A stretch of 64,000 nt of DNA from Torpedo marmorata (Eukaryota). The stretch covers positions 158,472,001 to 158,536,000 of the forward strand of contig OZ360226.1 of NCBI GenBank assembly GCA_977017645.1, read 5' to 3'. The notes beneath the pieces are model-generated. The model made no database searches. It was not told where the DNA came from and saw only the letters and a list, made by a program, of their open reading frames with translations. Shown one piece after another: positions 2,655-55,400 of this stretch (the first letter of the stretch is position 1; each line of letters opens with the position of its first letter). Made by a program: the position numbers and the translations under genes.

Positions 2655-3076
2655 ATAGAACATTAGAGCACAATGCACTTCAGACCACAATATTGTGTCG
2701 ACCTACATTAACCTACTCAACCATCTGAACCCTCCCAACCTCATAACCCTCTATTTTTATTGCATCCATGTGCCTGTCTAAGAGCATTGTACCAGCCTCT
2801 ACCACCATCCCTGGCAATGCATTCCAGGCACCCACTACGATGTAAAAAACTTACACCTGACGTCTCCCCTAAACTTTCCTCTCCTCATCTTATACAGATG
2901 TCCGCTGATATTTGCTACTGTTGCCCTAAGAAAAGGGTGTTGGCTGACCACCCCATCTACCCCTTTCATAATCTTTTAGACCTCTATTAAAACATCCTGG
3001 TAAGTCTCCTCTGCACTTTCTCCATAGCGTCCATATCCTTCCTGCAATAAGGTGACCAGAAATGAACACAATATTC
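2655..3076 (-). mobile_element. Degenerate CR1 (HER1-like) LINE 3' end
   Basis: Reverse-complement similarity to the CR1 3' regions at 45400-45897 (e.g. ttcataatcttttagacctctatta, gaacacaatattcc). Confidence 0.6.
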
Positions 3077-3360
3077 CTTTTCTTTTTAAAATATTTTTAT
3101 TGACTTTAACATATATCACATATACATGATCCGTAATAGACAGATATACTATATGTATATGAAAAGATGTACTAACTTAATTATACTACATGGAACCATA
3201 TTCATATAGATCAGAGTTAAATTCTATTTAATTTTTAAAAAAATAACAGTAATAGACATAGCTAAACCGCTCCCAATTTCTGAAAATAAGAAAAGAAACA
3301 AAGAAGAATAAAAAGGAAAAAAAAGAAAAAATCCAACAAAAAAAACCCAAAACTAACCTA

Positions 3361-4466
3361 CCGTATATTTCGGCGTATAAGTCGACCGACGTATAAGTCG
3401 ACCCCCCTTTTTCAGCCTCATTTTAATGGTTTTATGGTATATCCGGCGTATAAGTCGACCCCAAAAATCGCGATGCCTAAGATGTTGCGCATTGACCGGC
3501 GTATAAGTCGACCCCCAATTTTCAGGCTGTCTGGGCCTCCCAGCAACAACCCAAAATTTGTTACAACATCCCAATCGCCAAGTAACAAAGCTGTAAATTA
3601 AGCAAGTACCGGTAAGTAAAAAAAACAGTAAAAAAACCTTTGCTTCTGGCCGGGAAGATGCAGGTGCGGCGACGTCTTTCTCCCGAGCAGGAGCGGGGAG
3701 CTCGTTCTCCCGAGCAGTAGCGGGGAGCTCGTTCTCCCAGGCAGGAGCGGGGAGCTCGTTCTCCCGGGCAGGAGCGGGGAGCTCGTTCTCCCGGGCAGGA
3801 GCGGGGAGCTCGTTCTCCCGGGCAGGAGCGGGGAGCTCGTTCTCCCGGGCAGGAGCGGGGAGCTCGTTCTCCCGGGCAGGAGCGGGGAGCTCGTTCTCCC
3901 GGGCAGGAGCGGGGAGCTCGTTCTCCCGGGCAGGAGCGGGGAGCTCGTTCTCCCAGGCAGGAGCGGGGACGTCTTTCTCCCGAGCAGGAGCGGGGAGCTC
4001 ATTCTCCCAGGCAGGAGCGGGGAGCTCGTTCTCCCAAGCAGGAGCGGGGAGCTCGTTCTCCCAAGCAGGAGCGGGGAGCTCGTTCTCCCAAGCAGGAGCG
4101 GGGAGCTCGTTCTCCCGGGCAGGAGCGGCGACCTCGTTCTCCCGGGCAGGAGCGGCGACCTCGTTCTCCCGGGTAGGAGCGGGGAGCTCAGGCTCTACAA
4201 TTGTAGAATGTCTGGGTGGTTTATGGCGGCGCCCGGCGGTGGGGAGGTGTCGGGGAGCGGCGGCGCCGGCGGTGGGGAGGCACTTCCAGGGTCGACCTAT
4301 ACGCCGAATCGTGTTTTCAGGGGTCGACTTATACGCCGAATCGGCGTGAACTCGATTTTGAGCTGATTTTAAGGTCTCAAAAGTATATCCGGCGTATAAG
4401 TCGACCCCCGTTTTTTGAGACATTTTTGAGGGTTTCAAGGGTCGACTTATACGCCGAAATATACGG
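3361..4466. mobile_element. Non-autonomous Tc1/mariner (Tc2/pogo-like) DNA transposon
   Basis: Perfect TIRs CCGTATATTTCGGCGTATAAGTCGACC. TA duplicated at 3359-60 and 4467-68. The empty site (aactaaccTAattctattct) is seen in the paralogous L1 copy at ~17831-17850. Confidence 0.93.
3666..4189. repeat. 27-bp GC-rich minisatellite, about 19 copies
   Basis: Unit ggggagctcgttctcccgggcaggagc; translates as (PAPARENEL)n on the minus strand. Confidence 0.95.
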
Positions 4467-5277
4467 TAATTCTATTCTAACCCCTTCCTCTAATCAAGAT
4501 TGCCATTTAAAAGAAAGTACAAATATGGATCAAACAGCGACCTCCAGAGCTCAGACAAAGACTCCTTGGAGCATCCAAATCTCTTAAATCTCCCAATCAT
4601 GATAAAATTCCATGAATGGGCGCCATATCTTATCAAATTGAAAGTTGTCTTTAATGTTATATCTAATTTTCTCTTGACTTAAAACACGACATTACATCGT
4701 GTAACCACTGTGTATGCGTAGGGGAGGAATCTTCTTTCCATTTCAATAGAATTGCCCGTCTAGCTATCAGTATAGTAAAAGCTAAAACCTTCTCCTGAGT
4801 TGCAGAGATAGGTATATCCAGTGCTCGAGAAAATCCAAATAAAGCAATCAATGGGCATGGTTGTAATTTAATCTTAAAAATCGTTGATAAAATTTGAAAT
4901 ATATTTCCCAAAAAACTTCCTAAATTTGGACATTCCCAAAACATATGAATCAATGAAGCTTCAAAAATTTTACATTTCTCACATAGTGGGTCAATATCAG
5001 CATAAAAACGATATAATTTAAGTTTAGACATGTGTACTCTGTGTACCACTTTAAATTGTAATAAACAGTGCCTGGCACAGAATGAGGAATCATTGATTAA
5101 ACTAAGAGTAGAATGACAATCTTCATCTGAAAAAGTTATGTTCAAATCATGCTCCCAATCACTCTTAATGCCAGTCATTGAAACTGATTTTAAACTCAAC
5201 AACTCACTATAGATACATGATACTAATCCACCATGAACAAACTGCAAGTTAAACAATAAGTCAAGAATATTTGCTTC

Positions 5278-7037
5278 TTAAAGAAGATTTGGAAAAATGG
5301 ATTAATTTACCTATTACATTGATAGGAAGAGTTAACTGTATTAAAATGAATATATTCCCAAGGATACAGTATTTGTATCAAACTATACCTATTTTATTAC
5401 CACAGGTTTTTTTTTCAGGATTTAAACAAACAAGTGCGAAAATTTCTTTGGAAAGGTAAAATATCAAGAGTTTCTATGGAACGTTTAACATGGAAATATG
5501 AATTGGGAGGTTTACAACTCCCCAATTTTAAAAATTATTATCGAGCGGCACAAATGAGATTTGTTACTTTTTTTTTGAAAGTGAAGGAAGACCTGCATGG
5601 GTTGGAATAGAGCTTGGAGAAATAGGAGAAAAGGTACCAGAAGAATTTATATATAAATGGAATTCAAAATTATTGATAGGTGTTAAAGAAACACCGTTGT
5701 TAAAACATTTGATTAATGCTTGGAACAAGATTAATGATGAGATAGGGATGAAAGGAAATATATCACCCAAAATGTCTTTGATACAGAATAATCTTATACC
5801 TTTTACAAAAGATAATCAATTTTTAAACATATGGTCACAAAGGAATAAAGAAGATATAAGATTGTTATGAAGGGAACCAATTGATGTCGTTTACACAATT
5901 ACGGAACAAATATGGAATACCCAATAATACTCTTTTTTGTTATTTTCAATTAAGAGGTTATTTAAGGGAAAAACTAGGTCCAGATATGTTGTTACAAGAT
6001 TGTAGTGAGGTAGAAACCCTTATTAGGAAAGGAAATATTAAAAAATTTACTTTTATAATGTATTCTTTGTTACAAAGGGGAGCTTTAAAACGAGGACTTC
6101 ATAAATCTAGACAAAGATGGGAGCAAGATCTTAATGTTATAATTGATGAAAAAAGGTAGTCGGATTTATGTCAAGATAGTATGACTAATACTATTAATGT
6201 AAGATATAGATTAGTACAGTATAATTTTTTACATCAACTATATCTTACACCACAAAAATTGAATAAGATAAAATCTACACTATCAAATAAGTGTTTTAGA
6301 TGTGGTGAAGTGGAGGGAACTTTTCTACATTCAACATGGTTATGTTCTAAAATAAAATGTTTTTGGATAGAGCTAGGGAACCGGTTAAAACAAATTACAG
6401 GTGTTACATTTCCACAGAATCCTGATTTATTTCTATTAGGGAATGTGGAAGGAACTAGACCAAAGTTGAAGTTATCTACATATCAATTGAAATTTGTAAA
6501 AATTGCCTTAGCAGTTGCAAGGAAGTGTATAGCAGTAACTTGGAAATCAGATACAAATTTAAGCATGGATAGATGGAATATAGAGATGCGGAGCTGTATT
6601 CCACTGGAAAAAATAACATATGAGAAACAAATATGGGATATTTTTGCAAATTTGGCGTCCATATATCCAATCATTAGGTATGAATATTTAAATGTGTTGC
6701 TCTACATCCTAGACCCTGTTGACTCTCTCAAATTCAAAGAATAAATATTGTTGAATGCCGCGCGTCGAGCCGTGGACCCAGCAACGATCCGTTCAGATGT
6801 TTTTGATAAGAAATACCAATGCCTTCTTTTCTGTTCTTTTCTTTTAGTTTTTAGTAAGGGGAGGGAATTAAAGGGAGGGGAAGGGTGGAGGGTGGGTAAC
6901 TTTAGAGGGTGGGTTAAGAGAGGGGTTAGATACACTGTAATACAAACTATGTCTTTATTTACTGGAATTAATAATGTAAACTACGTATGTTGTATTACTG
7001 TGAGAAAATTCAAAATTTAAAATAAAATATTAAAAAA
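5278..7037 (+). mobile_element. L1/Tx1 'family B', 5'-truncated, inserted antisense into the family-A copy
   Basis: Broken ORFs (LPITLIGRVNCIKMNIFP; CFRC..HSTWLC), 3' UTR ending aataaaatatt plus an A-tail. TSD aagaatatttgctt at 5263-5276 and 7038-7051. Confidence 0.9.
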
Positions 7038-7067
7038 AAGAATATTTGCTTGGGAATGCGAGGAAAA

Positions 7068-7265
7068 TCTGCTCTTATCATTGTCCATAGCTACGGTAAA
7101 AGTCAGGGAGTTGTGGTCCTGGTCACTTAAGTGTTCCCCCACCATAAGGTCTGTCACCTGACCAGGTTCATATCCCAGTACCAGATCCAGTATGGCCTCT
7201 CCTCTAGTCAGCTTGTCCACATAATGTGTCAGGAATCCTTGGACACACCTGACAAAATCTGCCCT
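7068..7265 (-). mobile_element. CR1 endonuclease-region fragment
   Basis: Translation TRGEAILDLVL...GEHLSDQDHN matches the CR1 APE C-terminal motif. Confidence 0.75.
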
Positions 7266-8569
7266 ATTATTCTGTTTCCCATCCCTCTGCCTTTTGCAGA
7301 TTAAAGTTTGATGCAAAACTTCTTGTCCAAACATTAACATTTCTAAGATAAATAACATAATTCATGGTTAACATTCCATTCTTAACTCATTGCAAATTGT
7401 CTCCAAATTGTCTACCAATGATAACTTCCGTCGCCTCCCACAGAAGATCATCACATTTCATTGCCAACACAACCTTCATTTTCACAAACAAAAGGCAAAA
7501 ACAAAAAAAACTTTCAAGAGCGTAATGTTATGCTTTAAAGATAAAAATGTAGTCAAGGACAGGCAGAAGTTACTGCAGAATTTTATTTGGTCTTGAAAAT
7601 AATCCTGTTCCAGCTTTCAGATAAACCAAAATTATTCAGAATTCAGTACAACTTCAGTGTAAGTCATGGCTATTCATGGCAAGTTGGTACTCATTCAAGC
7701 ACCACTTCTGACCAAACATACTGTTATTTTAATGTTCTCAAATTATCTCACTCTACTGTTTATGGAGGTTTTATTACAAATACACAGCCTCATTACAACA
7801 CATTATTTCTGCCATTCAAATACCCTCAAATGAATGCTTCTTATTGAAGTCTATGTCCAATTTCCAACGCGTACAATAGCTATAAATAGGTTTGGATAAC
7901 TCCAAGTGTAGGACATTTGGATTCAGAGAAGTTGCATTCAAAGAAGTTGCACAAAAGAACACTGAAATAGTTGAGGCCAGTCACATCAATAGTACGGATG
8001 TGGATTCAAGCAGATGACCAAAAATAAGGGGAGAAGTAAGTGGTAACACAGAGATGGCTCTAAACAGTATTTACTGATGAGACAGGATATAGGAAAGCCT
8101 AGCTCACCAGTGAAATTCAGGACAATTAGCTGCATCAAATCTCTTGGGTCAAATGAGTCACAAATTCCAGCAATGTCAGAGGTATCAAATTCTAGATCAG
8201 CCATATCCTGGAGACCAACTCCAGTGATGACAAAACACTATACTCCCCCAAGGTGCAATTATGCGCTTTTCACCTTCAGTTCTGTGATTCCATATTTCTT
8301 TACCAGCTCAAATTAGTACAAGTTACACAACATCCTGATGTGCATTCTCACATAAAAATGAGCAAGCAATAAGTGTTAGAAGTGGAAATTCAAACACATA
8401 CTTTCAATGGAAATGGGAAAGCACTTTGAAATTCAATCCTGAAAGAATCATAAAATTCCAGAATAATAACTATGAAAGTTACATATTATGAATCTACAAA
8501 ACCAAAGTCAATCTGCTTGGCATTTAAACACCCTAATTTTTACAACAATTGACTGGTTTCTATGAAATA

Positions 8570-8773
8570 CAGTAAAACCCCCAGTATCCGGCACCTGTGG
8601 GGATTGGTCGATGCCAGATAAGTGAATTTTACGGTTGCTTGAGATTGCCTGCTGCGTGATTGGCGAACTAACCGCGAGAGGATGCCAATTTTAAACTTTT
8701 GTATTTTTAACCCATTTATTTTCCGTGATTTTTTTCCCGGTTGTTTGAATTCCGGATAACGAGGATTTTACTG
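8570..8773. mobile_element. Tigger/pogo-like MITE (204 bp)
   Basis: Imperfect TIRs CAGTAAAACCCCCAGTATCCGG and CAGTAAAATCCTCGTTATCCGG (rc), each flanked by TA. Confidence 0.85.
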
Positions 8774-8809
8774 TAGTTTAAATCTGGAACTGGATGTGTG
8801 AGATTTAAG

Positions 8810-9290
8810 TTCAGCCCCTTGTCACCCAGTTCTTCTTCCATCTACCCATCACCCACACACCATCCCATAGCATTCCTTCTCCCACTGTTCCCATCAGGCG
8901 ATCATCCCTCCCTAACATGGTTCCACCAGTCTCCTTCCTCCAAGCAGCTGTCGCGACCTTCATCCTCCTCTGCCCCTTCCTGGTTCCCCAGGTTCCCACT
9001 CCCTCCCCCCTGAAGTATCTACTTCCACTGATGATCTCCAACACCACTCCACCTGACTCCATCTATCCGTCATTCATTACCCCTTCTTGGTCCGTCTAAT
9101 TCCCCACTGACCCCCTCCCCTCTTTAATAATGCCTGCCCTCCCTCTCCTTTCTCAATGCTGAAGCAGGGTTTTGACCTGAAATGTTAATTGTCCATTTAC
9201 CTCTATGGATGCTGCCTAGCCTAGTGAGTTCCTTCAGCAGTTTGGTTTTTTTTGCTCTAGATTCTAGCACCAGTTGTCTCGCATCTCCAC
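8810..9290 (+). mobile_element. Penelope-like element 3' tail remnant
   Basis: Pyrimidine-rich tract followed by ctgaagcagggttttgacctgaaatgt...gatgctgcctagcctagtgagttcc, the same tail type as the GIY-YIG-linked copy at 30620-31075. Confidence 0.6.
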
Positions 9291-10407
9291 TTTCAGACTA
9301 CCAATGACCAATTAGGCAAGTCAAATGAAACAAAGGTAGCAAGAATAAAGTTTAAAGCAACTTTGAGCTAATTGAACAACAAAGTCTATTCTGTTACTAA
9401 ATAAACAGAAAAACAGAGAAATACTCAAATTATGCAGCATTATGAGAGAAGATAAAAAGCCAAATTTTCAGGACGAGCATTGAAAGAAACTACAAAACAT
9501 TACATTTCAAACATATAAGACAATGCGTAGAGAACACGTGCGACATCTGTGACAGGACAGAGAGATTAAACGATGCAAATGGTGGTGAAGTCAGCTGAGT
9601 GAGAAATTGAAAATTTCTTGAGAAAAGAGAACATTACAGCACAGTTCAGGCCTATTTTGCCCACGATGTTGTACAGACCTGTGCAAACCTACTCCACAAC
9701 AATCTAATTTCTCCCTATCTCACACCCACAACCCTCTATTTTTCCCCCACATCCATGCACCCATTTAAGAGTCTTCTGAATGTCCCCACTATATCACTCT
9801 CCACCACCAAAGCACTCCAGGCATCCACAACCCCCCAAACAAGAAAGCCCACCTCTGATGTCTCCCCTAAACCTTCCTCCACTCACCCTAAACAGATGTC
9901 CTCTGGTATTTGCCATTGTCACCCCAGGGAAAAGTGATAGTCAAGTTTATTGTCCTCAGATTGTACAAGTGCAACCCAATGAAACAGCATTCTCCGGTCC
10001 TCTTTGCAAAACATGCAGACACACAACCAGACATAACACACATACAGACAAACAATACATGTGCAGGACGTATCTTATCTATACAAATAAATATTGTTTT
10101 GTACATATGAGAGTCGCGGATGGTTAGTGTGAGCAGTTCCTTTGGTCATTCAGCATTCTCACTACCCGTGGGAAGAAACTGTTCCTCAGCCTGGTGGTGC
10201 TGGCTCTGATACTCCCGACATCGGCAGCTGAAAGATGCTCTGTACAGGGTGGAAGGGGTCCTCAATGATTTTGCCCTCTTCAGACAACAATCCCAGTAGA
10301 TCAGATCGATGGGGGGGGGGGGGGGGGGGGAGGGGAGAGAAACTCCAGTGATCCTCTCTGCCACTCTTATGGTCCTGTGGATTGACCTCCGATGTGATGC
10401 TCTACAG

Positions 10408-11079
10408 CAGGGCTTCCCAAACTTTTTAAACTCGCAGAACCCTTTGGTGGAGCACTTGGAAATCGCAGAACCCCAATCGTCATTTACAGTTTAAAAGACC
10501 TGGTATATACACAAGCATATAAAAAAATAAATAAATAAAGCATATAAAAAAGTAAATAAACTCACCAGTAGCGGATTAACTTCCACCCGGGCCCTAGGCT
10601 GCGCTTCAGTAAGGCCCCCCACCCCCCCCCCTCGACCTTGCCCCGCCATTGGCCCGAGCTAACCCCACCGCCCCTCGCTCCCCGCCACAGACCTGGCTAC
10701 ATCCCTCGCTCCCCGCCGCGGCCCAGGCTGTCTACGCCGCCCCTCGGTCCCCACCGCGGCTCGGGCCGCTCCCCGCCGCAGCCCAGGTCGCCTCCGCCGC
10801 CCCTTGCTCCCCGCCGTGGCCCAGGCCGCCTCCACTGCCCCTTGCTCCCCACTTAGGGAGCGAGCGAGTGAACGAGAAGAGGGGGAGGCAGTTTAAATTT
10901 TAAAAATGTGGCCAGCCTCGCGCCAAAAGAAATCCGAGTCTCATTGGTTGAAAATGGCGTCTTGAGGCTGACGTCTGCGCTGCCGACGTCAGGCCTCAAG
11001 ACGCCATTTTGTTTTGTTAGCGTCGAGGCAACTGTTACAAACACAGGTAAAAAGTAATTTAAATTTAAATTAAATAAAC

Positions 11080-11114
<35 letters not shown>

Positions 11115-11188
11115 GTTTTAGTTATTAGTACCCATTTCTTCTGAGGAACCCCTGCGCCTTTCCGTGGAACCCTGTTTGGGAAACGCTG
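10408..11188. mobile_element. hAT (Charlie-like) non-autonomous element
   Basis: TIRs CAGGGCTTCCCAAAC and CAGCGTTTCCCAAAC (rc). Perfect 8-bp TSD ctctacag at 10400-10407 and 11189-11196. Confidence 0.92.
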
Positions 11189-11929
11189 CTCTACAGCAAC
11201 CGTACTACACAATGATGCAGCTGGCCAGGAAGCTCTAAATAGAGCTTCTGTTGAAGGTTGACATAATGGTGGCCAGTAGCCTTGACCACTTCAGTCTTCT
11301 TAGGAAGTGCAGTTGCTGTTGCGCCTTCCTGACAAGTGAGGAGATGTTGAGTGTCCACGATAGGTTACTGGTTAAGTGAACTCCAAAGATCTTGGTGATC
11401 TCCATTCTCTCTACTACAGAGTTGTTGATGTGTAGTAGAGCTGTGGAGAGTGGTCATTCCTGGTCCTCCTGAAGTCCACGATCATCATCTTCGTCTTGTC
11501 CACGTTGAGACTCAGGTTGTTACTCTCGCACCATTTCACGAGATTTTCTACCTCTTCTGTTGTGCGACTCATCGTTATTGCTGATGAGGCCAACTGCTGT
11601 TGTGTCATCTGCAAACCTGATGACACTGTTGGAGCTGATTCTGGCGATGCAGTCATGGGTCAGAAAGAAACATGAACAGGAGTAGACTGAGCAAACAGCC
11701 TTGAGGTGCGCCACTGCTCAGCGTGACAGTGCTCGACATTCTGCTACCGACCCGGACAGACTGTGGTCTTTCTGTTAGGAAGTCCAGGAAGGACAGCTTC
11801 TCCACCATCCTCTGGGGAATGATCGTATTAATCATCGAGCTGAAGTTGATGAACAGCAGTCTGGCATATGAGGTGTCGTTGTCCAGGTGGGTCAGGACAG
11901 AGTGAAGCGACAAGACTATAGCATCGTCT

Positions 11930-12956
11930 TTGAAGATACATGGCGACCTTTATGTCTTATTTTCATTTCATATGATGTAAATGTTTCTAATGTGATTACC
12001 GCATTTGATGGCATATAGGACACCCCACCCCCCAATTTTGGCATGAGATTTCAGGAAAAAATTGTTTTAGTGTATTTACCTTCACAGCAGCAACACGTCC
12101 TCCTGCCCGCCGCACGCCGAGGCTCAGGCTGCTTCCCCCCACCATCCAAACGCTAATTGATTGACAGGTGTGCCGGGACCTGCGGGCGCACGAGGGTGGG
12201 AGGGAGAGAAGCCAAGACAACGGGCAGGGCCCAGGCCCACCATCGCGGGGAGCAATCGATCGCTTGCTTTGAGGGGAGTGCTGGACCTCTGTGATCAGGC
12301 TCCACGCTGAGCCTTTGTTTGACGCACACGGCCCCCCAAACAGATTGAATGAGGCGCGGGGGCAGATGGCAGTGAGCGAGCGAGCGGGCGGCCTGTTGAG
12401 CTGAGCTTGACAGGCCGCTCGCTCACTGTCACCCGCCCCTCATTCAATTTGCTCGAGGGTCCGTGCTCATCGAACAAAGCCTGATCATCGCGGCCCAGTG
12501 CTACCCTCAAAGCACTGTTGGTGAGAGCGAACGGGCAGGAGGGAGAGAGAGGGCAAGCGGGTGAGGAGAGTGCGGGCGGGGAGAGAGGGGGCGATGTATT
12601 TACTTTTCCAGATGAGATATAGTCTTACCTTTGTTTTTTGAATTACGGTAGGAACCAAAAACTACAAAATATATGTAACCCTCAGGATAAGCTGCTCAGC
12701 TGTTTGTTTTTTTTGATAGTTGTTTTTTTTTTATTAAAAGTGGGGTGTTTTGTTTTTTTTTTTTTTTTTTTTAAATACTTTTGATGTTTTTTTTTTCCAT
12801 TTTCATCCATTGCAGTGGAGGGGGGACCGAGTTTATACTGTTTGAAGTTTTATCTTAATATACATATACATATGTGATATTGTATTTTCAGTTTTGTTCT
12901 CTTTTCTTCATTGTATTGTATTTCTTATAAAAACCAATAACAAAGATTGAAAAAGA
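11930..12956 (+). mobile_element. L1/Tx1 3'-end fragment
   Basis: 18-bp TSD aagactatagcatcgtct at 11912-11929 and 12957-12974. T-rich UTR ending in an A-rich tail. Confidence 0.8.
11999..12648. mobile_element. Degenerate Tc2-like MITE with a GC-rich interior
   Basis: Termini TA|CCGCATT... and ...AATTACGG|TA resemble the 3361-4466 element. The TIR match is poor beyond the first bases. Confidence 0.6.
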
Positions 12957-14867
12957 AAGACTATAGCATCGTCTGTGGAACGGTTTCTTCTATAGGCAAA
13001 TTAAAATGGGTCCAGGTTCTCTGGGAGGTGTGCTTTGATGCATTCCATCACCAGACGCTCAAAGCACTTCATGGTGGTGGAGGTCAGTGCCAGAGGGCGG
13101 TAGTCATTGAGGCCTGTTATTGTCGCCCTCCTGGGTACCGGGGATGATGCTGGCTTGAACCCTGCAGTGAGGTGTTGAAGATGTCCATGAAGACCTCCGT
13201 CAATTGGTCTGTGCAGTCCTTCCAACCAGGAAAGTTGTCTGGTCCCGCCACCTTGTGTGGGTTCACCTAGGATAGGGTTCTCCTCACCACAGCCATGTAG
13301 GGGTACTATTCATCAGGGGGACACGGAGCTTTCTTTGGCATAATCCTGTTCTTCTCATCAGACCTTGTGCAGAAGATGTTCAGTCTGTCCAGAAGGGAGG
13401 CGTCATTGTCCTTAATTCGCAAGGTTGACGTGATCCGTTTAGTCTTGATCCCTTGCCACATGCGCCTCGTGTCGCACAGCTGTCTGTGGAAAGGTGCTGG
13501 CTGTCCACCCTATTCGAGCCCCTCATAATCGTGTACTCCCCCACTAAGTCACCTCTCATCCCATCACCCAAAACTGCAGCAAATTTGCATGGAAGATGAA
13601 AGAAATGGACAAGCAAGCAGAGAGAATAAAAATAAATACTGGAACTGAGATACAAAGCACTGCAATTTTTGGAACACCGAAATAAGGTTTGAAATACTTA
13701 GCTCAACTAGCAGTAGTCGAGAGTAAATTAGGTTATTGGCTTTTCATCAGAACAGTTGAACTTAATGCCAAGTCCCAAGGACTAAATTGTGCAGAATTAG
13801 AAGGTGAGATGTTGTTCCTCAAGCTTACATTAGATTTCACTTGAAATGATTAAAGAAACCAAAGACAGAGGTCAGAATGAGTATAACACAATTTAAGTAA
13901 TAGGTAATTGGAGGTTCGAGGTCAACATAATGCACTGAACAGAGGGGAAATCATGCTTGACTAATCTTCTGGAATTTTTTGAGGATGTAACTATGATAAT
14001 GGATGAGGGAGAGCCAGTGGATGTAGTGTACCTGGACTTTCAGAAAGCCTTTGATAAGGTCCCACATAGGAGATTAGTAGGCAAAATTAGACCACATGGT
14101 ATTGGGGGTACTGTACTGACATGGATAGAAAATTGGTTGGCAGACAGGATACAAAGAGTAGGGATTAACGGGTCCCTTTCAGAATGGCAGGCAGTGACTA
14201 GTGGGGAACCGCAAGGCTCGGTGCTGGGACCGCAGCTGTTTACAATATACATTAATGATTTAGATGAAGGGATTAAAAGTAACATTAGCAAATTTGCAGA
14301 TGACACAAAGCTGGGTGGCAGTGTGAAATGTGAGAAGGATGTTATGAGAATGCAGGGTGACTTGGACAGGTTGGATGAGTGGGCAGATGCAGTTTAATGT
14401 GGATAAATGTGAGGTTATCCACTTTGCTGGCAAGAACAGGAAGGCAAATTACTATCTGAATGGTGTCAAGTGAGGAAAAGGGGAAGTACAACGAGATCTT
14501 GGTGTCCTTGTTCATCAGTCACTGAAAGAAAGCGTGCAGGTACAGCAGGCAGTGAAGAAAGCTAATGGCATGTTGGCCTTCATAACAAGGGGAGTTGAGT
14601 ATAGGAGCAAAGAGATCCTTCTGCAGTTGTGCAGGGCCCTGGTGAGACTACACCTGGAATTGTGTGCAGTTTTGGTCTCCAGGTTTGAGGAAGGACATTC
14701 TTGCTATTGAGGGAGTGCAGCGAAGGTTCACGAGGTTAATCCCTGGGATGGCGGGACTGTCATATGTTGAAAGATTGGAGCAACTGGGCTAGTATACACT
14801 GGAATTTAGAAGGATGAGGGGGGATCTGATTGAAACATAAGATTATTAAGGGATTGGACACGCTAGA

Positions 14868-17800
14868 TAAAAATCTGGAATTATATAAAAGAGTAGAACT
14901 TAAAACTAAATTTGATCTACTTTCGACTTACCCAATTGAACAACAATTGTTGAGAAGTAAGTCTTTTTTACCTTCATGGCGAAAAATCAGGTAAATTATT
15001 AGCAGGACAATTAAAGGGAATTTCAGTTAAAAAAACAAATTAACAAGATTCGGATGAGAGATGATAGAATGACATCAGATCATTTTAAAATTAATGAGAA
15101 TTTTAGAGAATTCTATTCTAACCTTTATAGTTCTGAATTCAATAATAATTTTACTTCAATGTCGGATTTTCTACATCGAATTAATTTACCCACTTTATCT
15201 CAGGCTAAGTGTACAAGTTTGGAGGCGCCTATCTCTCAGGAGGAAATATCCCTGGCTATCTCTTCCTTACAATCTGGTAAATCTCCAGGCCCAGACGGTT
15301 TTCCTGTTGAATTTTATAAATCATTTTCCAAATGGCTTGTACCTCATTTAAATACTGTGCTTGATGAATCATTTGGGGAGGAGAAGCTTCCCTCATCTTT
15401 TAATGAGGCTAGTATATCTCTTATTCTAAAGAAAGGAAAAGAACCAACAGAATGTGCATCGTATAGACCCATTTCATTACTTAACGTTGACATGAAAATA
15501 TTATCTAAAGTTCTGGCACGTAGATTAGAAAACATTCTACCTACAATTATTGATTCAGATCAAACTGGTTTTATAAAAAATCGTCATTCTTATTATAATA
15601 TACATCAATTATTGAATATTTTATATTCACCATCCACCCCAACTACTGAATGTGCTCTTTCATTAGACGTTGAGAAAGTGTTTGATCGGGTGGAATGGGA
15701 ATATTTATTTGCTACTGTAAAAATTTAATTTTGGTTCAGATTTTATCAAATGGATCAAATTATTATATTCATGTCCTATGGCGTCAGTCAGTTCTAATTC
15801 ACAACATTCGAGAAAGTTTAGGCTTAATAGAGGAACACGGCAAGGTTACCCATTAAGTCCTTTACTTTTTGATATTGTACTGGAACCTCTGGCTGTTGCT
15901 CTTCGACACTGTAGAGAATTTAAAGGAATAACTAGAAATGGAATCGAACATAAATTATCTCTCTACGCAGATGATTTAATGCTTTTTATTTCAAATCCTG
16001 AGATTTCTATACCGAACATATTAACTTTGTTTGCTCAATTTAGTCAATTTTCAGGTTATAAATTAAATTTGCATAAAAGTGAATTACTTCCTTTAAAAGG
16101 ATCTTTTTTGAATTATTCTAATTTCTCGTTTAAAATAGCTAACGACAAATTTCAATATTTAGGAATTACAATTACAAAAAAGTATAAAAATTTATTGAAA
16201 AAATTTTTTTTGGTATTACTTAATCAGACTAAAGTACAAATATCGGGATGGTCACTCCTATCTATTACAATGATTGGACGAATCAATTCGATTAAAATGA
16301 ATATTTTACCAAAATGTTTGTATCTTTTTCAAGCTGTACCAATTTTCGTTCCTAAATCTTTCTTTAATTCATTAGATTTGATTATTTCTTCATACATATG
16401 GCAGGGGAAACAACCACGTATAAATAAAGCCCATTTGCAAAAGACTAAAGGAAGGGGGATTATCACTTCCAAATTTTAGATTCTATTATTGGGCGACTAA
16501 TATACGTAGTTTTCTTTTATTATTATATTTTGACAAATTGGCGATTTGCCCTTCCTGGGTAGAAATGGAACTGAAATTTTCTAAAAAATCATCTATGTTG
16601 GCAATTTTAGGTTCCTTTTTGCCTTTTTCCTTTTCCAAATTGATAAATAACCCTATAAAGAGAAATAGATTGAGAATATGGGCTCAATTTAGAAAAAATT
16701 TTGGTTATAACAGTTTCTCTCTTGCTGGGGTTAGATGTAGGGTAGGGTTTAAAGAATGGTATAGATTAGGTATTAAAAATTATAAAGATCTTTTTATTTG
16801 AGATATCTTTGCTTCCTTCGAACAATTATCAACTAAATTTAATCTTTCTAATAGACTTTTTTTTTTATATTTACAAGTTAGACATTTTGTTCAGTCTAAG
16901 CTTCATAATTTTCCTCGAATTCCCGAAGCAATTTTTTTTGAATATTTTATTTAAGAAATTTTCATCCATACACGTATAATTTGTAAAATACATAATATTA
17001 AATTATTATCATTACTTTATTTATACATGATGGAAGCAAATATTCTTGACTTATTGTTTAACTTGCAGTTTGTTCATGGTGGATTAGTATCATGTATCTA
17101 TAGTGAGTTGTTGAATTTAAAATCAGTTTCAATGACTGGCATTAAGAGTGATTGGGAACATGATTTGAACATAACTTTTTCAGTTGAAGATTGGCATTCT
17201 ACTCTTAGTTTGATTCATGATTCCTCATTCTGTGCAGGCACTGTTTATTACAATTTCAAGTGGTACATAGAGTACACATGTCTAAACTTAAATTATATCG
17301 TTTTTATGCTGATATTGACCCACTATATGAGAAATGTAAAATTTTTGAAGCTTCATTGATTCATATGTTTTGGGAATGTCCAAATTTAGGAAGTTTTTGG
17401 GGAAATATATTTCATCAATGATTTTTAAGATTAAAATAGAACCATGCCCATCAATTGCTTTATTTGGATTTTCTCGAGCACCAGATATACCTATCTCTGC
17501 AACCCAGGAGAAGGTTTTAGCTTTTACTATGCTGATAGCCAGACAGGCAATTCCATTGAAATGGAAAGAAGATTCCTCCCCTACACATACACAGTGGTTA
17601 CACGATGTAATGTCGTGTTTAAGTCTAGAGAAAATTAGATACAACATTAAAGACAATAACTTTCAATTTGATAAGATTTGGGGACCATTCATGGAATACT
17701 ATTATGATTGGAAGATTTAAGAGATTTTGATGCTCCGAGTAGTCTTTGTCTGAGGTCTGGAGGTTGCTGTTCGATCCATATTTGTACTTTTTTTTCTTCT

Positions 17801-18108
17801 AAATAGCAATCTTGATTAGAGGAAGGGGTTAGAATAGAATTAGGTTAGTTTTGTTTTTTTCTTACTGGATTTTTTTTTTTTTTTAAATTTTTTTGTTTGT
17901 TTCCTTTCTTATTTTGAGTAATTGGGAAAGGGGTTTAGCTATGTCTATTACTGTTTTTTTAAAATCAAATAGAATTTAACTGTGATCTATATGAAAATGA
18001 TTCTATGTAGTTCGAATAAGTTATACTATATGCACACAAAAAGATGTCTATTACGGATCATGTATATGTGATATATGTTAAACTCAATAAAAATATTTTT
18101 AAAAGAAA
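14868..18108 (+). mobile_element. L1/Tx1 'family A' ORF2 (RT and C-terminus) plus 3' UTR, frameshifted
   Basis: KSPGPDGF, YRPISLLN, RQGYPLSP and LYADD motifs, then aataaa and an A-rich tail. Flanked by a duplication of at least 26 bp of host CR1. Confidence 0.93.
16932..17032 (-). mobile_element. 101-bp L1/Tx1-like 3' tail inserted antisense into the family-A L1
   Basis: Minus strand ends aaataaaatattc plus A8. TSD gaagcaa at 16925-16931 and 17033-17039. Confidence 0.8.
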
Positions 18109-18459
18109 CATATTATTAAGGGATTGGACACGCTAGAGGAAAGAAACATGTTCCCTATGTTGGGGGAGTCAAGAACCAGAGGCCACAGTTTAAGAATAAG
18201 GGGTAGGCCATTTAGAACGGAGTTGAGGAAAATCATTTTCACCCAGAGAGTGGTGGATCTGTGGAATGCTCTGCCTCAGAAGGCAGTGGAGGCCAATTCT
18301 CTGGATGCTTTCAAGAAAGAGTAAGATAGAACTCAAAGATAGCAGAGTCAAGGGATATGGGGAGAAGGCAGGAACAGGGTACTGATTGTGGATGATCAGC
18401 CATGATCACAGTGAATGCTGGCTCGAAGGGCCGAATGGCCTACTCCTGCACCTATTGTC

Positions 18460-20649: not shown

Positions 20650-22275
20650 GTATTGGCGATAGAACCCTTGGCTGAATTAATTAGAAAAGATCCTAAGATA
20701 GTGGGTATTAAAGTTGGTATGGAAGAACATAAGATTAGTTTATTTGCAGATGATGTATTGATATATATGACAAAATCTATTACATCACTTCAACAACTAT
20801 CTATCATATTAAGAGAATATGGTGAAATATCTGGATATAAAATTAATTCTGATAAAAGTGAAATAATGGCTTTATCTCAAGGTGATTATACTAGATGTAA
20901 AGAAATTACACAATTTAAATGGGCTAAAGAAGGAATTAAATATTTGGGGGTTAAGGTTGATACAAAATTGGAAAATTTATATAACTTAAATTATCTACCA
21001 TTATTTGTGAAAATAAAGAAAGATTTAGAGAATTGGAAAGATTTACCCATAACTTTAATGGGAAGGGTAAATTGTATTAAAATGAATATTTTTCCAAGAG
21101 TTCAGTATCTTTTTCAATCAATTCCTTTTGGGATTCCTCAAAAAATTTTTAAAGATTTAAATTTTATTATTAGGAAATTTTTATGGAAAGGAAAGTTAGC
21201 AAGAGTAGGTATGGAAAAGTTAACCTGGATTTATGAGATGGGTGGATTGCAACTTCCTAATTTTCAAAATTATTATAAAGCAGCTCAATTAAAATTTGTT
21301 AATGAATTTTTTGATTCAACTAAATCTTCTGCTTGGATTAAAATAGAATTAAATAATATAGGAGAAAATCTTAAAGAAGAAATTATTTATAAATGGAATT
21401 CTAAGTTAATATTATTAAAAAAGAAAAATTCACCGATTATTAAACATTTGTTAGAAATATGGGGTAAGACGGATAAAGAGATAGGTGGAAGAGGATTAAT
21501 TTCTTCAAATATGCCATTATATCAAAATGGATTTATATCATTTACTGTTAATAATCAATTACTTAAAATTTGGTTTCAAAAAGGTATTAAGAAGATTAAT
21601 GATTGTTTTGAAGCTGGAAGATTTATTACGTTTCAAAGAATGAAAGATAAATTTAATATACCAGATAATACATTTTTAGCTTATTATCAAGTTAAAGCTT
21701 TTTTGACTGAGAAATTAGGTTATGCTTTGATTTTACCAAGACAAAATGAATTAGAATTATTAGTTACCAATGGAGATGTTAATAAATTTATTTCTCAAAT
21801 GTATAAATTGTTTCAGAGGAAAATGCCTAAAATAGGATTACATAAATCAAGATTAAAATGGGAATTAGATTTAAATGTAAATATAGATGAAAATCATTGG
21901 AAAGATTTATGTAAGTTAAGTATGACGAAGATTATCAATGTTAGATATAGACTAGTACAATATAATTTTTTTCATCAATTATATTTAACACCTAAAAAAT
22001 TAAAGAAATTTAATCCGACATTATCAGGCTTATGTTTTAGATGCAATAGTGTTCATTCTACATGGTTTTGTCCAAAGATTCAAGATTTTTGGTTGAAAGT
22101 TAAAAAAATTTTAGATAAAGTATTTAATATTGTGTTTCCAATGGATCCTATGTTATTTTTATTTGGAGATATTAGAAAATTTAGTATTAAGATGAAATTA
22201 AATATGTTTCAAGTAGAATTTTTGCGAATTGCTTTAGCTGTTTCAAAGAGAATCATTGCTTTGTGTTGGCATGTT
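20650..22275 (+). mobile_element. L1/Tx1 'family B'-related ORF2 fragment, open for ~540 codons, truncated at both ends
   Basis: LAIEPLA..., SLFADD, SGYKIN and LPITLMGRVNCIKMNIFP motifs. The knuckle is shortened to CFRCNSVHSTWFC. No 3' UTR. Confidence 0.88.
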
Positions 22276-49407: not shown

Positions 49408-52400
49408 GATGCGAACATACTTCATAGTCTTTCAATTGTCTGGTCTGTTGTTGTTGTTCGCATGTGTAACACTACTGGCCATTTAGAGTGTGCATCGACA
49501 ACAATAAGGAAGTTGTCTCCCATAAAGGGACCAGCAAAATCTACGTGAATCCTGTGCCATGGTCGCGATGGCCATTTCCATGGGTTAGCTTCGGCTTGAG
49601 GTGCTTTGGGTTGCATCTCCTGACAAATGCAACATCTTCTCACTGTCTGTTCAATATCGATGTCCATTGATGGCCACCAGACATGCATACGTGCCAAAGC
49701 TTTCATTCGAACCATCCCTGGGTGATTATTGTGGAGCTCTGATAACATGGCAGCCTGCCATTTCGTAGGAACGATTGTCCTGGTTCCCCATAATAAACAA
49801 CCTTCTTCAATTGATATTTCATTGCATCGTGTATAATAAGGTTTCAATTCGGGAGAAATAGCTTCGGCCTCGGTCCACCCATTTAATGTGAAATATAGGA
49901 CTTTTGACAGTGTAGCTTCTTTCCGTACTTCTTTGCTGATTGTCTTTGCTGTTATTGGTAAGCAATGAAGTTCTTGATTAATAGCTGTAGCTTCCGCCGT
50001 CCATTTAATTATCTCGTTTTTCTGTTCATTTTCAGGGAGAGGTAAGCGAGATAGGGCATCAGCATGGCCGTTTTGAGTGGCTGGTTTATGTTTCAAATTG
50101 TAATCATATGCGGTGAGCTTCATGGCCCACCTTTCAATTCTTGTTGCAGCTAGCACTGGAATACCCTTTTTAGGGCCTAGAATCAAACTCACTGGTTTGT
50201 TGTCTGTTACCGAGGTAAACTTCCTACCATATAAGTATTGGTGAAATTGTTTGACACCAAATATTATGGCGAGTCCTTCTTTTTCCAGTTATGCATAATT
50301 ACGTTCACAAGCCGTCAAAGACCGGGAGGCATAAGCTACCAATTGTTCCCCCTTTACTGTTACTTGTGACGACACTGCACCTCAGCCCACTGGCGAAGCA
50401 TCCACCACCAGGGTCACTTACTTTTCTGGGTCGTAGTGGACAAGAACATTATCGCTTGATGTCAGCAGTTCTTTCAAACAATTGACCACGTTACTTGTCT
50501 CTTCATTCCAGCACCATTTCTGTTCTTTTCTTAACAATTGGTTCAGTGGGCTGCACAGCATTGCTTCCGATAATGGTTAACCAAACCCAAGAATGATTGC
50601 AATTCGGCTTTATTCGATGGGTAGGGTGCTCTGCGGACGGCCTCGGTACCAGCGGTATCCAGTCGGACTCCTTCACTATTAATTGTAAATCCAAAATATG
50701 TTACGGAAGGTACCATAAATACACACTTGTCATGGCACAGACAGACGTTTGCTTGTTGCAATGGGGCTAGGACCTTTTCCAGTTTTGATAGATGCTCTGA
50801 GTCGTCTCGACCTGTAATTATGATGTCATCGAGGTAGCATCCTACATTTATGCCGTGCAACAATTTGATACACCCGGGATGTCCAATTTCATGAATTTTC
50901 TACCCCCATTCGGGGCCTGAAATAATTCCTCCGCTTTGGGCATAGGATGTTCAGGTATTTGCAGAGCCTGATTAACAGTGACTTTGTAATCACCACAAAT
51001 TCGGATTTCTCCATTGGATTTTCGGACTGGTACGATGGGAGCTGCCCAGTCACTGTATTGAATTCTTTCCAGGATTCCTTCGTTTTCTAACCTGTTAAGT
51101 TCTGATTTAATCTTTCCTTTATTGCAAACGGTACTGTCCTGGGCTTATAGAACCGGGGTTCAACACCGGGTTTCAAGTGTAACTTCGCCTGGACTCCTTG
51201 GATTTTCCCCAGGCCTTTTCCGAAAATCGTTTGATACCTCTTAAGCACTTGCTCCAGTTTTGGCTTGGCCTCATCCTCCAGGCATACGTTCATTATGGAT
51301 CCAATTTCCATCCAGTCTAGTTGGATGTGTGATAACCAGTTTCTTCCGAACAACGCCAGCCCCTTGGTGTCAACGATGTAGATGGATAATCTTTTAGGTG
51401 ACTGTCCTTTATATTCCACGTTTACTTTGCATTTTCCAAACACCTTGACTTTCTCCCCTGTGACTGTTTTCAACACCATGTCGGACTCTTTAATGGTGAG
51501 GTTGGGTAACAGTCGTGTTTTTAACTTTAGTGGTATTAGCGACACTGCCGCTCCCATGTCTAATTCCATTCGAAGAGGTTCGTTGTTTTTCACAGGGACG
51601 TAGATTTCCGATTTCTTATCCTTTAATCTGCAAATGTACATTACTTCTACTGCCTTGTCTTCCTCCGAGTCGTTAGTTTCACTGCTTAGGGTTTCATCCT
51701 TCTCCTCCACAGTTTTTATTCCGGAGGGCTGTTTTTCGTATTTAGGTCTTTGCTTTTTCTCCTTTTTTCTCTTTTTGACACTTTCTTTCTTGGACACTTG
51801 GCTCTGATGTGTCCCTCTTTGTTACATAGATGACATCTTGGTTTTCTGAAATAACAATTATCTGGACTGGTTGCTTTTTCCGCAGCGAAAACATTCTTGG
51901 CTGGAAAATTTTCCAGCGAAGCATTTAGGGCTTAAATGTGTTTTTTTCGAGCAGGTCACAACTCTGGTTGATGACCTTCAGTTTAGGGTGGGCTGAAAGG
52001 GGGGTTTAGGTTTTAGTAGGGTTAGCAAGGTTACCTATATTCATGTCTTGGTTTTTATTTTTGCTCTGCAGTTCGGATCGAATGTGTCGACTTTTGGAAC
52101 AATGACGGATGGATCCTGGAGCATCCAAAATTATTATTAATTATTAATTTAATGATTTCTATTAATATCATATCTTGGAATGTTAAAGGCATGAATGGAC
52201 CAATTAAAAGGTGTAGGGTAATGGCACATGTTAAACATCTGAAGGCAGATATTGTCTTTTTCCAAGAGACACATATAAAGAATTTGGATAAAGGCAGGTT
52301 AATGTTTAGATGGAATGGTCAATTTTTTATTCCTGCTCTGAAGCCAAAGTAAGAGGAGTGTCGATTTTAATTAATCAGAATATTCCATTTGTACTTCATA

Positions 52401-55400
52401 ATAGTACTTTAGATAAACAAGGTCGTTTTATAATTCTTACAGGCAAAATATATAATAAAATGGTAGTTTTGGCCAATGTTTATGCCCTGAACACTGATGA
52501 GCCTGCATTTTTGAATATTTTTTTCAGCTTTACCTGATTTAAATCAATACTCATTGATCCTGGGGGGTGACTTTAACTGTTGTTTAAATGTGGTTTTAGA
52601 TCGTTCTTCTCCAAGATCAGGTACTCTTTCTAAATCGGCAGTTTTAATTCACTCTTTTTTGACAACTTTGGGGTTTCAGATGTATGGCTTTTTAAAATCC
52701 TAATAACAGAGAATACTCCTTTTTTTCGAATGTACATTGTTCCTATTCTAGAATAGATTACTTCCTAAATGATAATCAACTGATTTCCTCAACTAAATCA
52801 TGTGAATATCAAGCAATAGTTGTTTCTGATCACGCTCCAGTGATTCTGACTTTAAATTTCTTCGACATTGCTTTTTCAAAAAGACAATGGAGATTTAATA
52901 CCACTTTACTTGCAGACAAATAATTTTTGGATTTTTTTGAGAAACAAATACAGTTTTTCTTTTCTACCAATTCCTCTCCATCGATATCTAATTCGATTGT
53001 TTGGGATACTATGAAATCTTACTTGAGAGGACAAATTATTTCTTATACAGCAAATATCAAGAAGACGAATAAAGAAAGACTGGAATTAATAAATCAAATT
53101 AAGCAAATTGAATATATTATTTGCTCAAGATAAAAATCTGGAATTATATAAAAGAAGAGTAGAACTCAAAACTAAATTTGATCTAATCTCAACTTACCCA
53201 ATTGAACAACAATTGTTGAGAAGTAAGAGTTTTTTATCTTCATGGTGAAAAATCAATAAGTTGCTAGTAGGACAATTAAAGGGAATTTCAGTTAAAAAAC
53301 AAATGACAAGATTCGGATGAGAAAAGATAGAATGACAACAGATCATTTTAAAATTAACGAGACTTTTAGAGAATTTTACTCCAACCTTTATAGTTCCGAA
53401 TTTAATAATAGTTTTCCTTCAATGTCAGATTTTTTAGATCGAATTAATTTACCCACTCTATCTCGGGCTAAGCGTACAAGTCTGAGGCACCTATTTCCCA
53501 GGAGGAAATATCTCTTGCTATTTCCTCCTTACAGTCTGGTAAATCTCCAGGGCCAGACTGTTTTCCTGTTGAATTTTATAAATCGTTCTCATTTGGGGAT
53601 GAGAAGCTTCCTTTAATGAGGCTAGTATATCTCCTTTTTTTAAAAAGGGAAAGAACCAACAGAATGTGCATCTTATAGACCCATTTCATTACTCAATGTA
53701 GATATGAAGATTCTATCTAAAGTTCTGGCACGTAGATTAGAAAATATTTTACCAATAATTATTGATTCCAACCAAACTGGTTTTATTAAAAATCGTTATT
53801 CTTATTATAATATACATCGATTATTGAATATCTTATATTTACCATCCACCCCAGCGACTGAATGTGTTCTTTCATTAGATGCTGAGAAAGTGTTTGATCG
53901 GGTGGAATGGGAATATTTATTTGCTAATCTGGGAAAATTTAATTTTGGTTCAGATTTTATCAAATGGATTAAATTATTATATTTAATAGGGGAACGTAGC
54001 AAGGTTGCCCGTTAAGTTCTTTGCTTTTTGATACAGTATTGGAACCTCTAGTTGTTGCTCTTCGACAGTGTAGAGAATTTAAAGGAATAACTAGAAGTTG
54101 AGTTGAACATAAAGTATCTCTTTACGCAGATGATTTAATGCTTTTTTATCTCAAATCTTGAGGTTTCTATACCAAACATATTAACTCTGCTTGCTCGATT
54201 TAGCCAGTTTTCGGGTTATAAATTAAATTTGCATAAAAGTGAATTATTACTTCTAAAAGGGTCCTTTTTAAACTATTCTAATTTCCCATTTAAAATAGCT
54301 AATGACAAATTCCAATACTTAGGAATTACAAAAAGTTATAAAAATTTATTGAAAGAATTTTTTTTGGTATTACTTAATCAGACTAAAGTACGACTATCGG
54401 GATGGTCACCTCTATCTTTCACAATGATTTGACGAATTAATTTGATTAAAATGAATATTTTACTGAAATTCTTGTATCTTTTTCAAGCTGTACCAATTTT
54501 CATTCCTAAATCCTTCTTTAACTCATTAGATCCGGTTATTTCTTCATACATATGGCAGGGAAAACAACCACATATAAATAAAGCCCATGTTCACAAGACT
54601 AAAAAGGATGGGGGATTATCACTTCCAAATTTTAGATTCTATTATTGGGCGACTAATATACGCAATTTACTTTTATTATTATATTTTGATAAATTGGCGA
54701 TTCGTCCTTCTTGGGTAGAAATGGAACTGAAGTTTTCTAAAAAATCATCTATGTTGGCAATTTTAGGTTCCTTTTTGCCCTTTTCCTTTTCTAAATTGAT
54801 AACTAATCTGATAATGAGAAATAGGTTGAGAATATGGGCTCAATTTAGAACATTTTTTGGTTATAACAGTTTTTCTCTTGCTAGCCCCATTATAGATAAC
54901 CATCTTTTTCAGCCATCTGTGTTAGATGTAGGTTTTAAGGAATTGTACAGATTAGGTATCAAAAATTATAAAAATCTTTTTATTTGAGATACCTTTGCTT
55001 CTTTTGAACAATTATCAACTAAATTTAATCTTTCCAATAGACATTTTTTTAGATATTTACAAGTCAGGCATTTTGTTCAGTTTAAAATTTTGGATTTTCC
55101 TTGAATCTCAAATACAAATATTCTATATCTATTGTTTAATTTACAGTTTGTACATGGTGGATTAGTATCATGTATTTACAGCGAGCTGTTAAATTTAAGA
55201 TCAGCTTCAATGGTCGGCATTAAGAATGATTGGGAACATGATTTGAATATAACTTTTTCAGATGAAGATTGGTACTCTACTCTTAGTTTGATCAATGATT
55301 CCTCATTCTGTGCAAGGCATTGTTTATTACAATTTAAGGTGGTACATAGAGTACACATGTCCAAACTCAAATTATCTCGTTTTTATGCAGATATTGACCC

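Follow-up and report, generated by a model that had tools for sequence, protein, structure and literature searches.

A single-nucleotide hotspot for antisense L1 insertion in open reading frame 2 of another L1 lineage in Torpedo marmorata

Hotspots for short interspersed elements (SINEs) within a rodent retroelement were reportedly described by Cantrell et al. in 2001. For the human genome, Levy et al. (PMC2836564) list among other nesting hotspots L1MB3 positions 5824 and 6142, both hit by AluSx, and Alu position 133, hit by Alu itself, as well as a 2.2-fold sense bias of L1 insertions into L1. Independent insertions by the L1 endonuclease at reused sites have been recorded in NF1, APC, F9 and BTK (Wimmer et al., PMC3219598), and for the Tx1 clade Kojima 2015 (PMC4494074) describes elements that prefer other transposons as targets, namely Tx1L in Tx1D, Tx1-Mar in Mariner-N4_AMi, and Tx1-8_Crp and Tx1-4_AMi in long terminal repeat (LTR) retrotransposons. 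Here we report on a stretch of 64,000 nucleotides from Torpedo marmorata (assembly GCA_977017645.1, contig OZ360226.1, 158,472,001 to 158,536,000; hereafter the window, in whose positions all coordinates are given), in which two copies of one L1 lineage, called the host, are each interrupted by an antisense L1 insertion at the homologous site of open reading frame 2 (ORF2). The original prediction, made from the sequence of the window, saw in this pair a candidate Tx1-like retrotransposon that targets and inactivates another L1. In the open-access literature we found neither this site nor any L1-in-L1 hotspot of cartilaginous fishes described; similar cases may be contained in the supplementary target tables of Kojima.

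The window holds three copies of the host, a long interspersed nuclear element (LINE) lineage, designated A1, A2 and A3, along with fragments of related families. The 3' part of A1, comprising the end of ORF2 and the 3' untranslated region (UTR), lies on the minus strand at 3079–5277, broken by a DNA-transposon-like insert (3361–4466), and includes the left copy of a 15-bp target duplication (AAGAATATTTGCTTC, 5263–5277, plus strand), with the first nick TC|AAGA at 5262/5263. It is followed by a 5'-truncated L1 of family B (C-terminal part of ORF2, 3' UTR and A-tail) at 5278–7037 on the plus strand, antisense to the host, and by the right copy of the duplication (7038–7051, plus), 14 nt long with the final C missing. 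What is left of A1 beyond the insert is 30 bp in all (7038–7067, duplication included), ending in a 5' stub (7052–7067, minus) that stops 16 bp beyond the site. A1 is 93% identical to A2 over 4467–5277. The latter consists of a 5'-truncated ORF2 part with reverse transcriptase (14868–16931, plus) and a 3' part (17033–18108, plus), separated by a 101-bp insert, the 3' end of another L1 family, D (16932–17032, minus, antisense to the host), with eight T at 16932–16939 and the body at 16940–17032. This insert shows a visible 7-bp target duplication at its 3' junction (16925–16931, minus) and a complete 15-bp target copy at its 5' junction (17033–17047, minus). The family-B insert is 95–98% identical to most of its other genomic copies, and the family-D insert 91–97% to the other copies of its family.

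The layout of the two loci agrees with the original prediction, including the common 5' junction, where both inserts follow directly after ...TTGCTTC, and the third copy, in which the homologous site (55100–55130, plus) is empty and has diverged by two substitutions at the nick that abolish TC|AAGA. It was also right to count two separate events: the sequence common to both inserts is confined to the last ~21 nt at the tail end, and the longer relatives of the 101-bp piece share 71–77% identity with family B in ORF2, so that these are two events by two families and not one composite element. The visible duplication lengths, given as 14–15 and 7 bp, likewise hold, but the shorter one probably reflects the same 15-bp stagger, its A-rich first eight bases having been overwritten by the poly(A) tail. 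Priming by poly(A) over these bases would leave seven visible, and since eight A and 7 bp add up to 15, both window events probably used the same two nicks.

To gauge the recurrence, junctions were counted across the 6.2-Gb genome; only exact tail motifs score, which makes the numbers lower bounds. An 18-mer covering the exact site occurs 256 times, and the first 30 of these loci were all empty, a result that alone would have hidden the hotspot. Of 26 loci with an altered continuation, six were insertion junctions, the others being 16 point variants, one deletion and three unrelated sequences; sense-orientation use of the same duplication was found at none of these 26, which cover the young subfamily only. 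Matches to tail plus site lay at the site in six of seven cases, and copies closely related to the window hosts yielded eight events, including two with 5' inversion (loci L124 and L127). With a looser pattern, 77 tail-plus-motif junctions were obtained and all examined, of which 59 fall at the host position (55 assigned by the 3' flank, three by the 5' flank and one by inspection) and 18 are non-host. The hosts of these events are 65–93% identical to the reference copy, so that one position recurs across several host subfamilies, and the predicted sharp antisense peak is thereby borne out. The host ends just past the site in 14 of the 59 occupied copies and in 10 of 71 empty ones, by hand count.

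There are 2,452 occurrences of the motif preceded by TC, and 74 of 90 that were sampled are host sites (one reclassified by eye). Three of these 74 were occupied, as opposed to none of the 16 non-host sites (searched within 1.5–2 kb), and the 59 events over ~2,016 host sites (2,452 × 74/90) correspond to an occupancy of ~2.9%. Genome-wide, the tail pattern has 247,213 matches versus 45,302 for its own control, giving a mean of ~1.6e-5 insertions per strand-position. An occupancy of ~3% against such a mean exceeds chance, and usage of the site is ~1,800 times the mean rate, yet it accounts for only 0.03–0.04% of all such tails. A second pair of occupied sites was noted at L254 and L255 (G000:C11:257510817 and 257524119), 13 kb apart and with different inserts. 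Separately, nine near-identical host copies (L101, L109–L116) share the same variant site, and eight of them are on small contigs, suggesting segmental or satellite amplification.

We consider it very probable that these data describe a single-nucleotide hotspot in the ORF2 of a single L1 lineage, at which many L1 families spread over the genome have together inserted about 60 times and which likely owes its use to a near-optimal endonuclease site on the antisense strand (TC|AAGAATATT) and probably also to a favourable second nick 15–16 bp on. Target-primed reverse transcription would start at the bottom-strand nick TC|AA, and the top strand would be cut where a pyrimidine is followed by a purine, at a distance of 15 or 16 bp, to yield the shared 5' junction. 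The antisense orientation would follow from the motif being on that strand. The site is located near residue 1,030 of the host ORF2, where the reference copy encodes E-A-N-I-L-D, and the motif may persist in the subfamilies because it is part of this protein code.

Evidence for the first nick comes from insertions that were not selected for the site, whose preference is for a pyrimidine in position −1, followed past the nick by AAG(A) (YY|AAGA). The duplications made elsewhere, mostly 14–16 bp long, are likewise in keeping with the hotspot. In a first-nick matrix derived from 27 such insertions, the site ranks fifth of ~7,200 strand-positions of the host, with a score of 218-fold. A second TC|AAGA site in the 3' region of the host served as control and carries three to four independent antisense insertions in ~740 copies, or 0.4–0.5% (six pattern matches, of which one is non-host and two form the duplicate pair L382/L383; 16 of 20 sampled sites were host). 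It is used ~300 times the mean, with a matrix score of 149-fold. At non-host TCAAGAATAT sites the occupancy is estimated at roughly 1.2%, with a range of 0.15–3.3% (851 junctions and 14,324 sites, with TC upstream in two of 11 resolved). Taken together, the matrix rank, the reuse of the control site and the TCAAGAATAT estimate indicate that local sequence explains most of the enrichment.

Several observations weigh against this explanation as a complete account. The first-nick matrix predicts ~220-fold enrichment where ~1,800-fold is observed, leaving an excess of 3–8-fold over the first-nick model, and the hotspot is used about 5–6 times more than the similarly scored control site (Fisher p = 6e-5 for all subfamilies). 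In addition, the four host sites that outrank the hotspot in the matrix had no insertion in the sampled copies. The two occupied-site pairs within 13 kb (the window pair and L254/L255) are more than uniform placement would give, so that regional effects contribute, and the lower-bound nature of the counts belongs on the same side. Of 39 duplications away from the hotspot, only 14 have a pyrimidine–purine step at their end (p = 0.09), and a length of 15 bp is in any case the most frequent one (12 of 39, with 14–16 bp in 24 of 39), both of which speak against a role of the second nick in particular. The residual excess could stem from host age, regional clustering or the second nick.

The top-strand nicking step has been called poorly understood (PMC7617806), and the hotspot offers some data on it. 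In hosts ending GTATTT|G, a 16-bp duplication was found in seven of nine events, four of them without microhomology, while hosts with the pyrimidine–purine step at 15 gave 15 bp in 16 of 32 events and 16 bp in six, five of which are compatible with 15 via microhomology. The association between duplication length and host variant reaches a Fisher p of about 0.01 (computed with 15 such events, the recount being 16). Excluded from this tally were L378 (a false junction), ten rows without a 5' junction in range and, as other host variants, L327, L335, L336, L342 and L330. That a one-base variant of the host moves the duplication from 15 to 16 bp suggests a sequence-directed second nick; on the other side, an untemplated T could mimic the shift. 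We tentatively put forward, as a proposal a little short of an even chance, that the hotspot is a two-nick site of ~25 bp fixed by the host protein code, in which the duplication grows from 15 to 16 bp when the pyrimidine-to-purine step shifts by one base, the rate rises several-fold where the second site is good and the L1 endonuclease picks the top-strand nick by sequence in vivo.

A simpler account, which is a version of the preferred explanation and overlaps with it, gives the second nick no part and lets first-nick preference, exposure time and regional clustering explain everything. TC|AAGAATAT sites would then be used alike with or without a pyrimidine–purine step at +15/16. It is consistent with the young host subfamily taken alone (five of ~380 sites used), for which the difference from the control site is not significant (p = 0.18), and with the non-host TCAAGAATAT estimate, the range of which overlaps 2.9%. 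Host sites themselves cluster, with seven gaps of 30 kb or less among 99 where 1.8 are expected, and a matrix built from so few sites probably underestimates the top of the scale. This account is a real contender, but we lean towards doubting it, as the duplication length tracks the host variant and the GTATT variant is apparently the most used (about 17 of ~245, 7%).

Away from the hotspot, the host is an ordinary target. The 99 young host copies (168 kb) contain 29 insertions, seven of which are L1-type with 13–15-bp duplications; these lie at seven different positions, four antisense and three sense. Four further junctions at the ends of young copies are uncertain, and 65 further host copies (103 kb) add one certain and one uncertain insertion off the site. 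Pooled, this amounts to 8–13 L1 insertions in 271 kb from 164 copies, or 1.5–2.4e-5 per strand-position, whereas at the site itself four of 165 sampled host copies were hit. The host as a whole is thus hit at the genome-average rate (1.6e-5) and is not targeted. Such a rate bears on the idea that a shared endonuclease preference has been selected to hit a rival L1 at codons that are hard to change. Retention of the motif in host subfamilies 65–93% alike would fit this idea, as would the share of L1 insertions into sampled hosts that fall at the site (a quarter to a third; four of 12–17) and the 3–8-fold residual above the first-nick model. With ~3% of host copies hit and most hosts truncated, however, the gain would be negligible, and YY|AAG departs little from the TT|AAAA preference reported for human L1 (PMC7617806), which together with the average rate over the whole host makes selection of this kind very unlikely.

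Among the young host copies, about 16 of 99 contain a segment in inverted orientation, the pattern left by twin priming of L1 (L067, L069, L074, L083, L085, L089, L138, L161, L175–L177, L182, L183, L191, L195 and L198). Another antisense host site, at about 2409–2423 of the reference, holds two L1 insertions (L144 and L450). At reference 3564–3567, L137 and L187 contain the same ~0.9-kb element (TGTTA...TAACA) at the same host position in opposite orientations, and this family is also present in L145, L152 and L157.

The inserting elements were examined for specificity. Family B gave 2,929 first-look candidates, and 30 of 40 scored matches were fetched, one of which was the window copy; none of the other 29 flanks the site. 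The 101-bp piece is the 3' end of family D, with 738 candidates, and here too none of 29 copies was at the site (30 of 40 scored matches fetched, window copy excluded). The upper 95% bound on 0/29 is 12%, which is under the 20% criterion for target specificity in PMC4494074. Neither window family inserts specifically at the site, and a site-specific family B or D is rejected, so that the proposed targeting by one lineage does not hold. The tails of the 77 junctions fall into eight multi-member clusters and eight singletons; non-host sites, too, carry members of the three largest clusters. For 50 of 58 tagged inserts, relatives (at least 85% identity over 90 nt) exist at unrelated sites in the junction collection; L249, counted among the 58, was tagged wrongly and actually lies at a non-host site. 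The other eight, several of them interrupted or very short, are without relatives at further host sites as well, and no hidden site-specific tail family was found among the 58.

A zinc-knuckle (gag-like) ORF1 is typical of Tx1. In four inserts of near-full length from the most frequent inserter group, three of them at the site, ORF1 contains a coiled coil and gave no match to zf-CCHC, and the single ORF1 searched, from the same group, matches human L1 ORF1p with an E value of 3e-7. One insert at the hotspot (L323, 2472–6272) has an uninterrupted ORF2 of 1,267 aa that matches residues 8–1182 of human ORF2p (E value 3e-176); the window families are 25–47% identical to this ORF2, and the fragment at 20650–22269 is 80% identical. 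Members of the L1 clade combine an ORF1 bearing a coiled coil, an RRM and a CTD with an ORF2 that encodes an apurinic/apyrimidinic endonuclease, a reverse transcriptase and a C-terminal zinc motif. Judged by these protein matches, the commonest-group inserters belong to this clade, whose other traits are present at the junctions, namely an A-tail, 5' truncation, 7–20-bp duplications, a YY|RA nick preference and occasional 5' inversion. Homology-guided insertion was considered and rejected, the 5' microhomology being mostly 0–2 nt and the inserts antisense.

A site-specific Tx1-like retrotransposon that targets and inactivates the ORF2 of another L1 is consequently highly improbable. It would account for the sharp single-nucleotide antisense peak, elements of the Tx1 clade that prefer other transposons, LTR retrotransposons included, do exist (PMC4494074), and for eight of the 58 inserts the limited collection contains no close relative at non-host sites. 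These eight, however, have no relative at another host site either, the site takes a minute share of all tails, and the reading is refuted for families B and D. Moreover, the tested ORF1 is L1-type and not Tx1-type, and both window hosts were already 5'-truncated, dead fragments, with no active host hit here to be inactivated. Derivation of the loci from one composite element, segmental duplication or gene conversion can be dismissed almost outright: one control-site event does exist as a duplicated pair (L382/L383), but the inserts at the site come from different families, range from 30 bp to 5.9 kb, are truncated at different 5' points and lie in different host subfamilies, 5' inversion affects two of them, all 77 junctions are distinct in their 100-nt junction sequence, and the composite element that the original prediction had named as a refuting case was rejected because the window inserts are different.

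Further elements adjoin the host copies. The insert at 3361–4466 within A1 is a non-autonomous DNA transposon, presumably Tc1/mariner-like, with terminal inverted repeats, a TA duplication and an internal 27-bp tandem array, and its family was also found in L149, L412 and L362. A1 lacks a target duplication, and the CR1/L2-like stretches on its two sides (3040–3078 and 7068–7260) differ from each other, which suggests a deletion during or after its insertion. A2 lies inside a CR1-like element, bounded by an exact 26-bp duplication (14842–14867 and 18112–18137) that exceeds the usual 14–16 bp. Just upstream of A3, an LTR-retrotransposon-like sequence with RNase H-like and integrase zinc-binding domains occupies 49425–51821 on the minus strand.

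The candidate 'parasite of a parasite' is thereby removed, while a strong L1-in-L1 hotspot outside mammals remains. Two insertions at one nucleotide do not prove target specificity if the target is multicopy and contains an ideal nick site, and insertions at such a site would be prone to homoplasy when used as phylogenetic markers. If the two-nick proposal is true, the about 60 events at homologous targets form a natural mutagenesis series for second-strand cleavage, and if the shift between 15 and 16 bp holds, it would lend in vivo support to sequence-guided top-strand nicking.

The site is a real, strong hotspot and represents a new example both of the known nesting hotspots (PMC2836564) and of reused L1 nick sites (PMC3219598). 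As in the cases of Levy et al. (PMC2836564), single positions are hit in one orientation by non-specific, L1-driven elements of several subfamilies, and the two nicks are 15–16 bp apart, with an A-rich spacer that is absorbed by poly(A) and shortens the visible duplication. Unlike in those cases, autonomous L1 families here enter another L1 lineage, antisense and in a non-mammalian vertebrate, with an optimum of YY|AAGA and not TT|AAAA. The parallel to Wimmer et al. (PMC3219598) is that different elements, in independent events, use one and the same nick and leave duplications that may or may not be equal in length; their sites, however, are single-copy disease loci each used twice, whereas the present target is multicopy and has been used about 60 times. 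In vitro top-strand nicking by human L1 ORF2p was followed on one substrate (Ghanim et al. 2025, PMC7617806), and the present hosts provide a small-sample in vivo readout. With the elements of Kojima 2015 (PMC4494074) the inserters share that an apurinic/apyrimidinic endonuclease (APE)-type non-LTR retrotransposon sits at a fixed position within another transposon, but there 13–90% of SINEU copies flank their target and more than 20% counts as specific, compared to 0/29 in each window family and 0.03–0.04% of all tails here.

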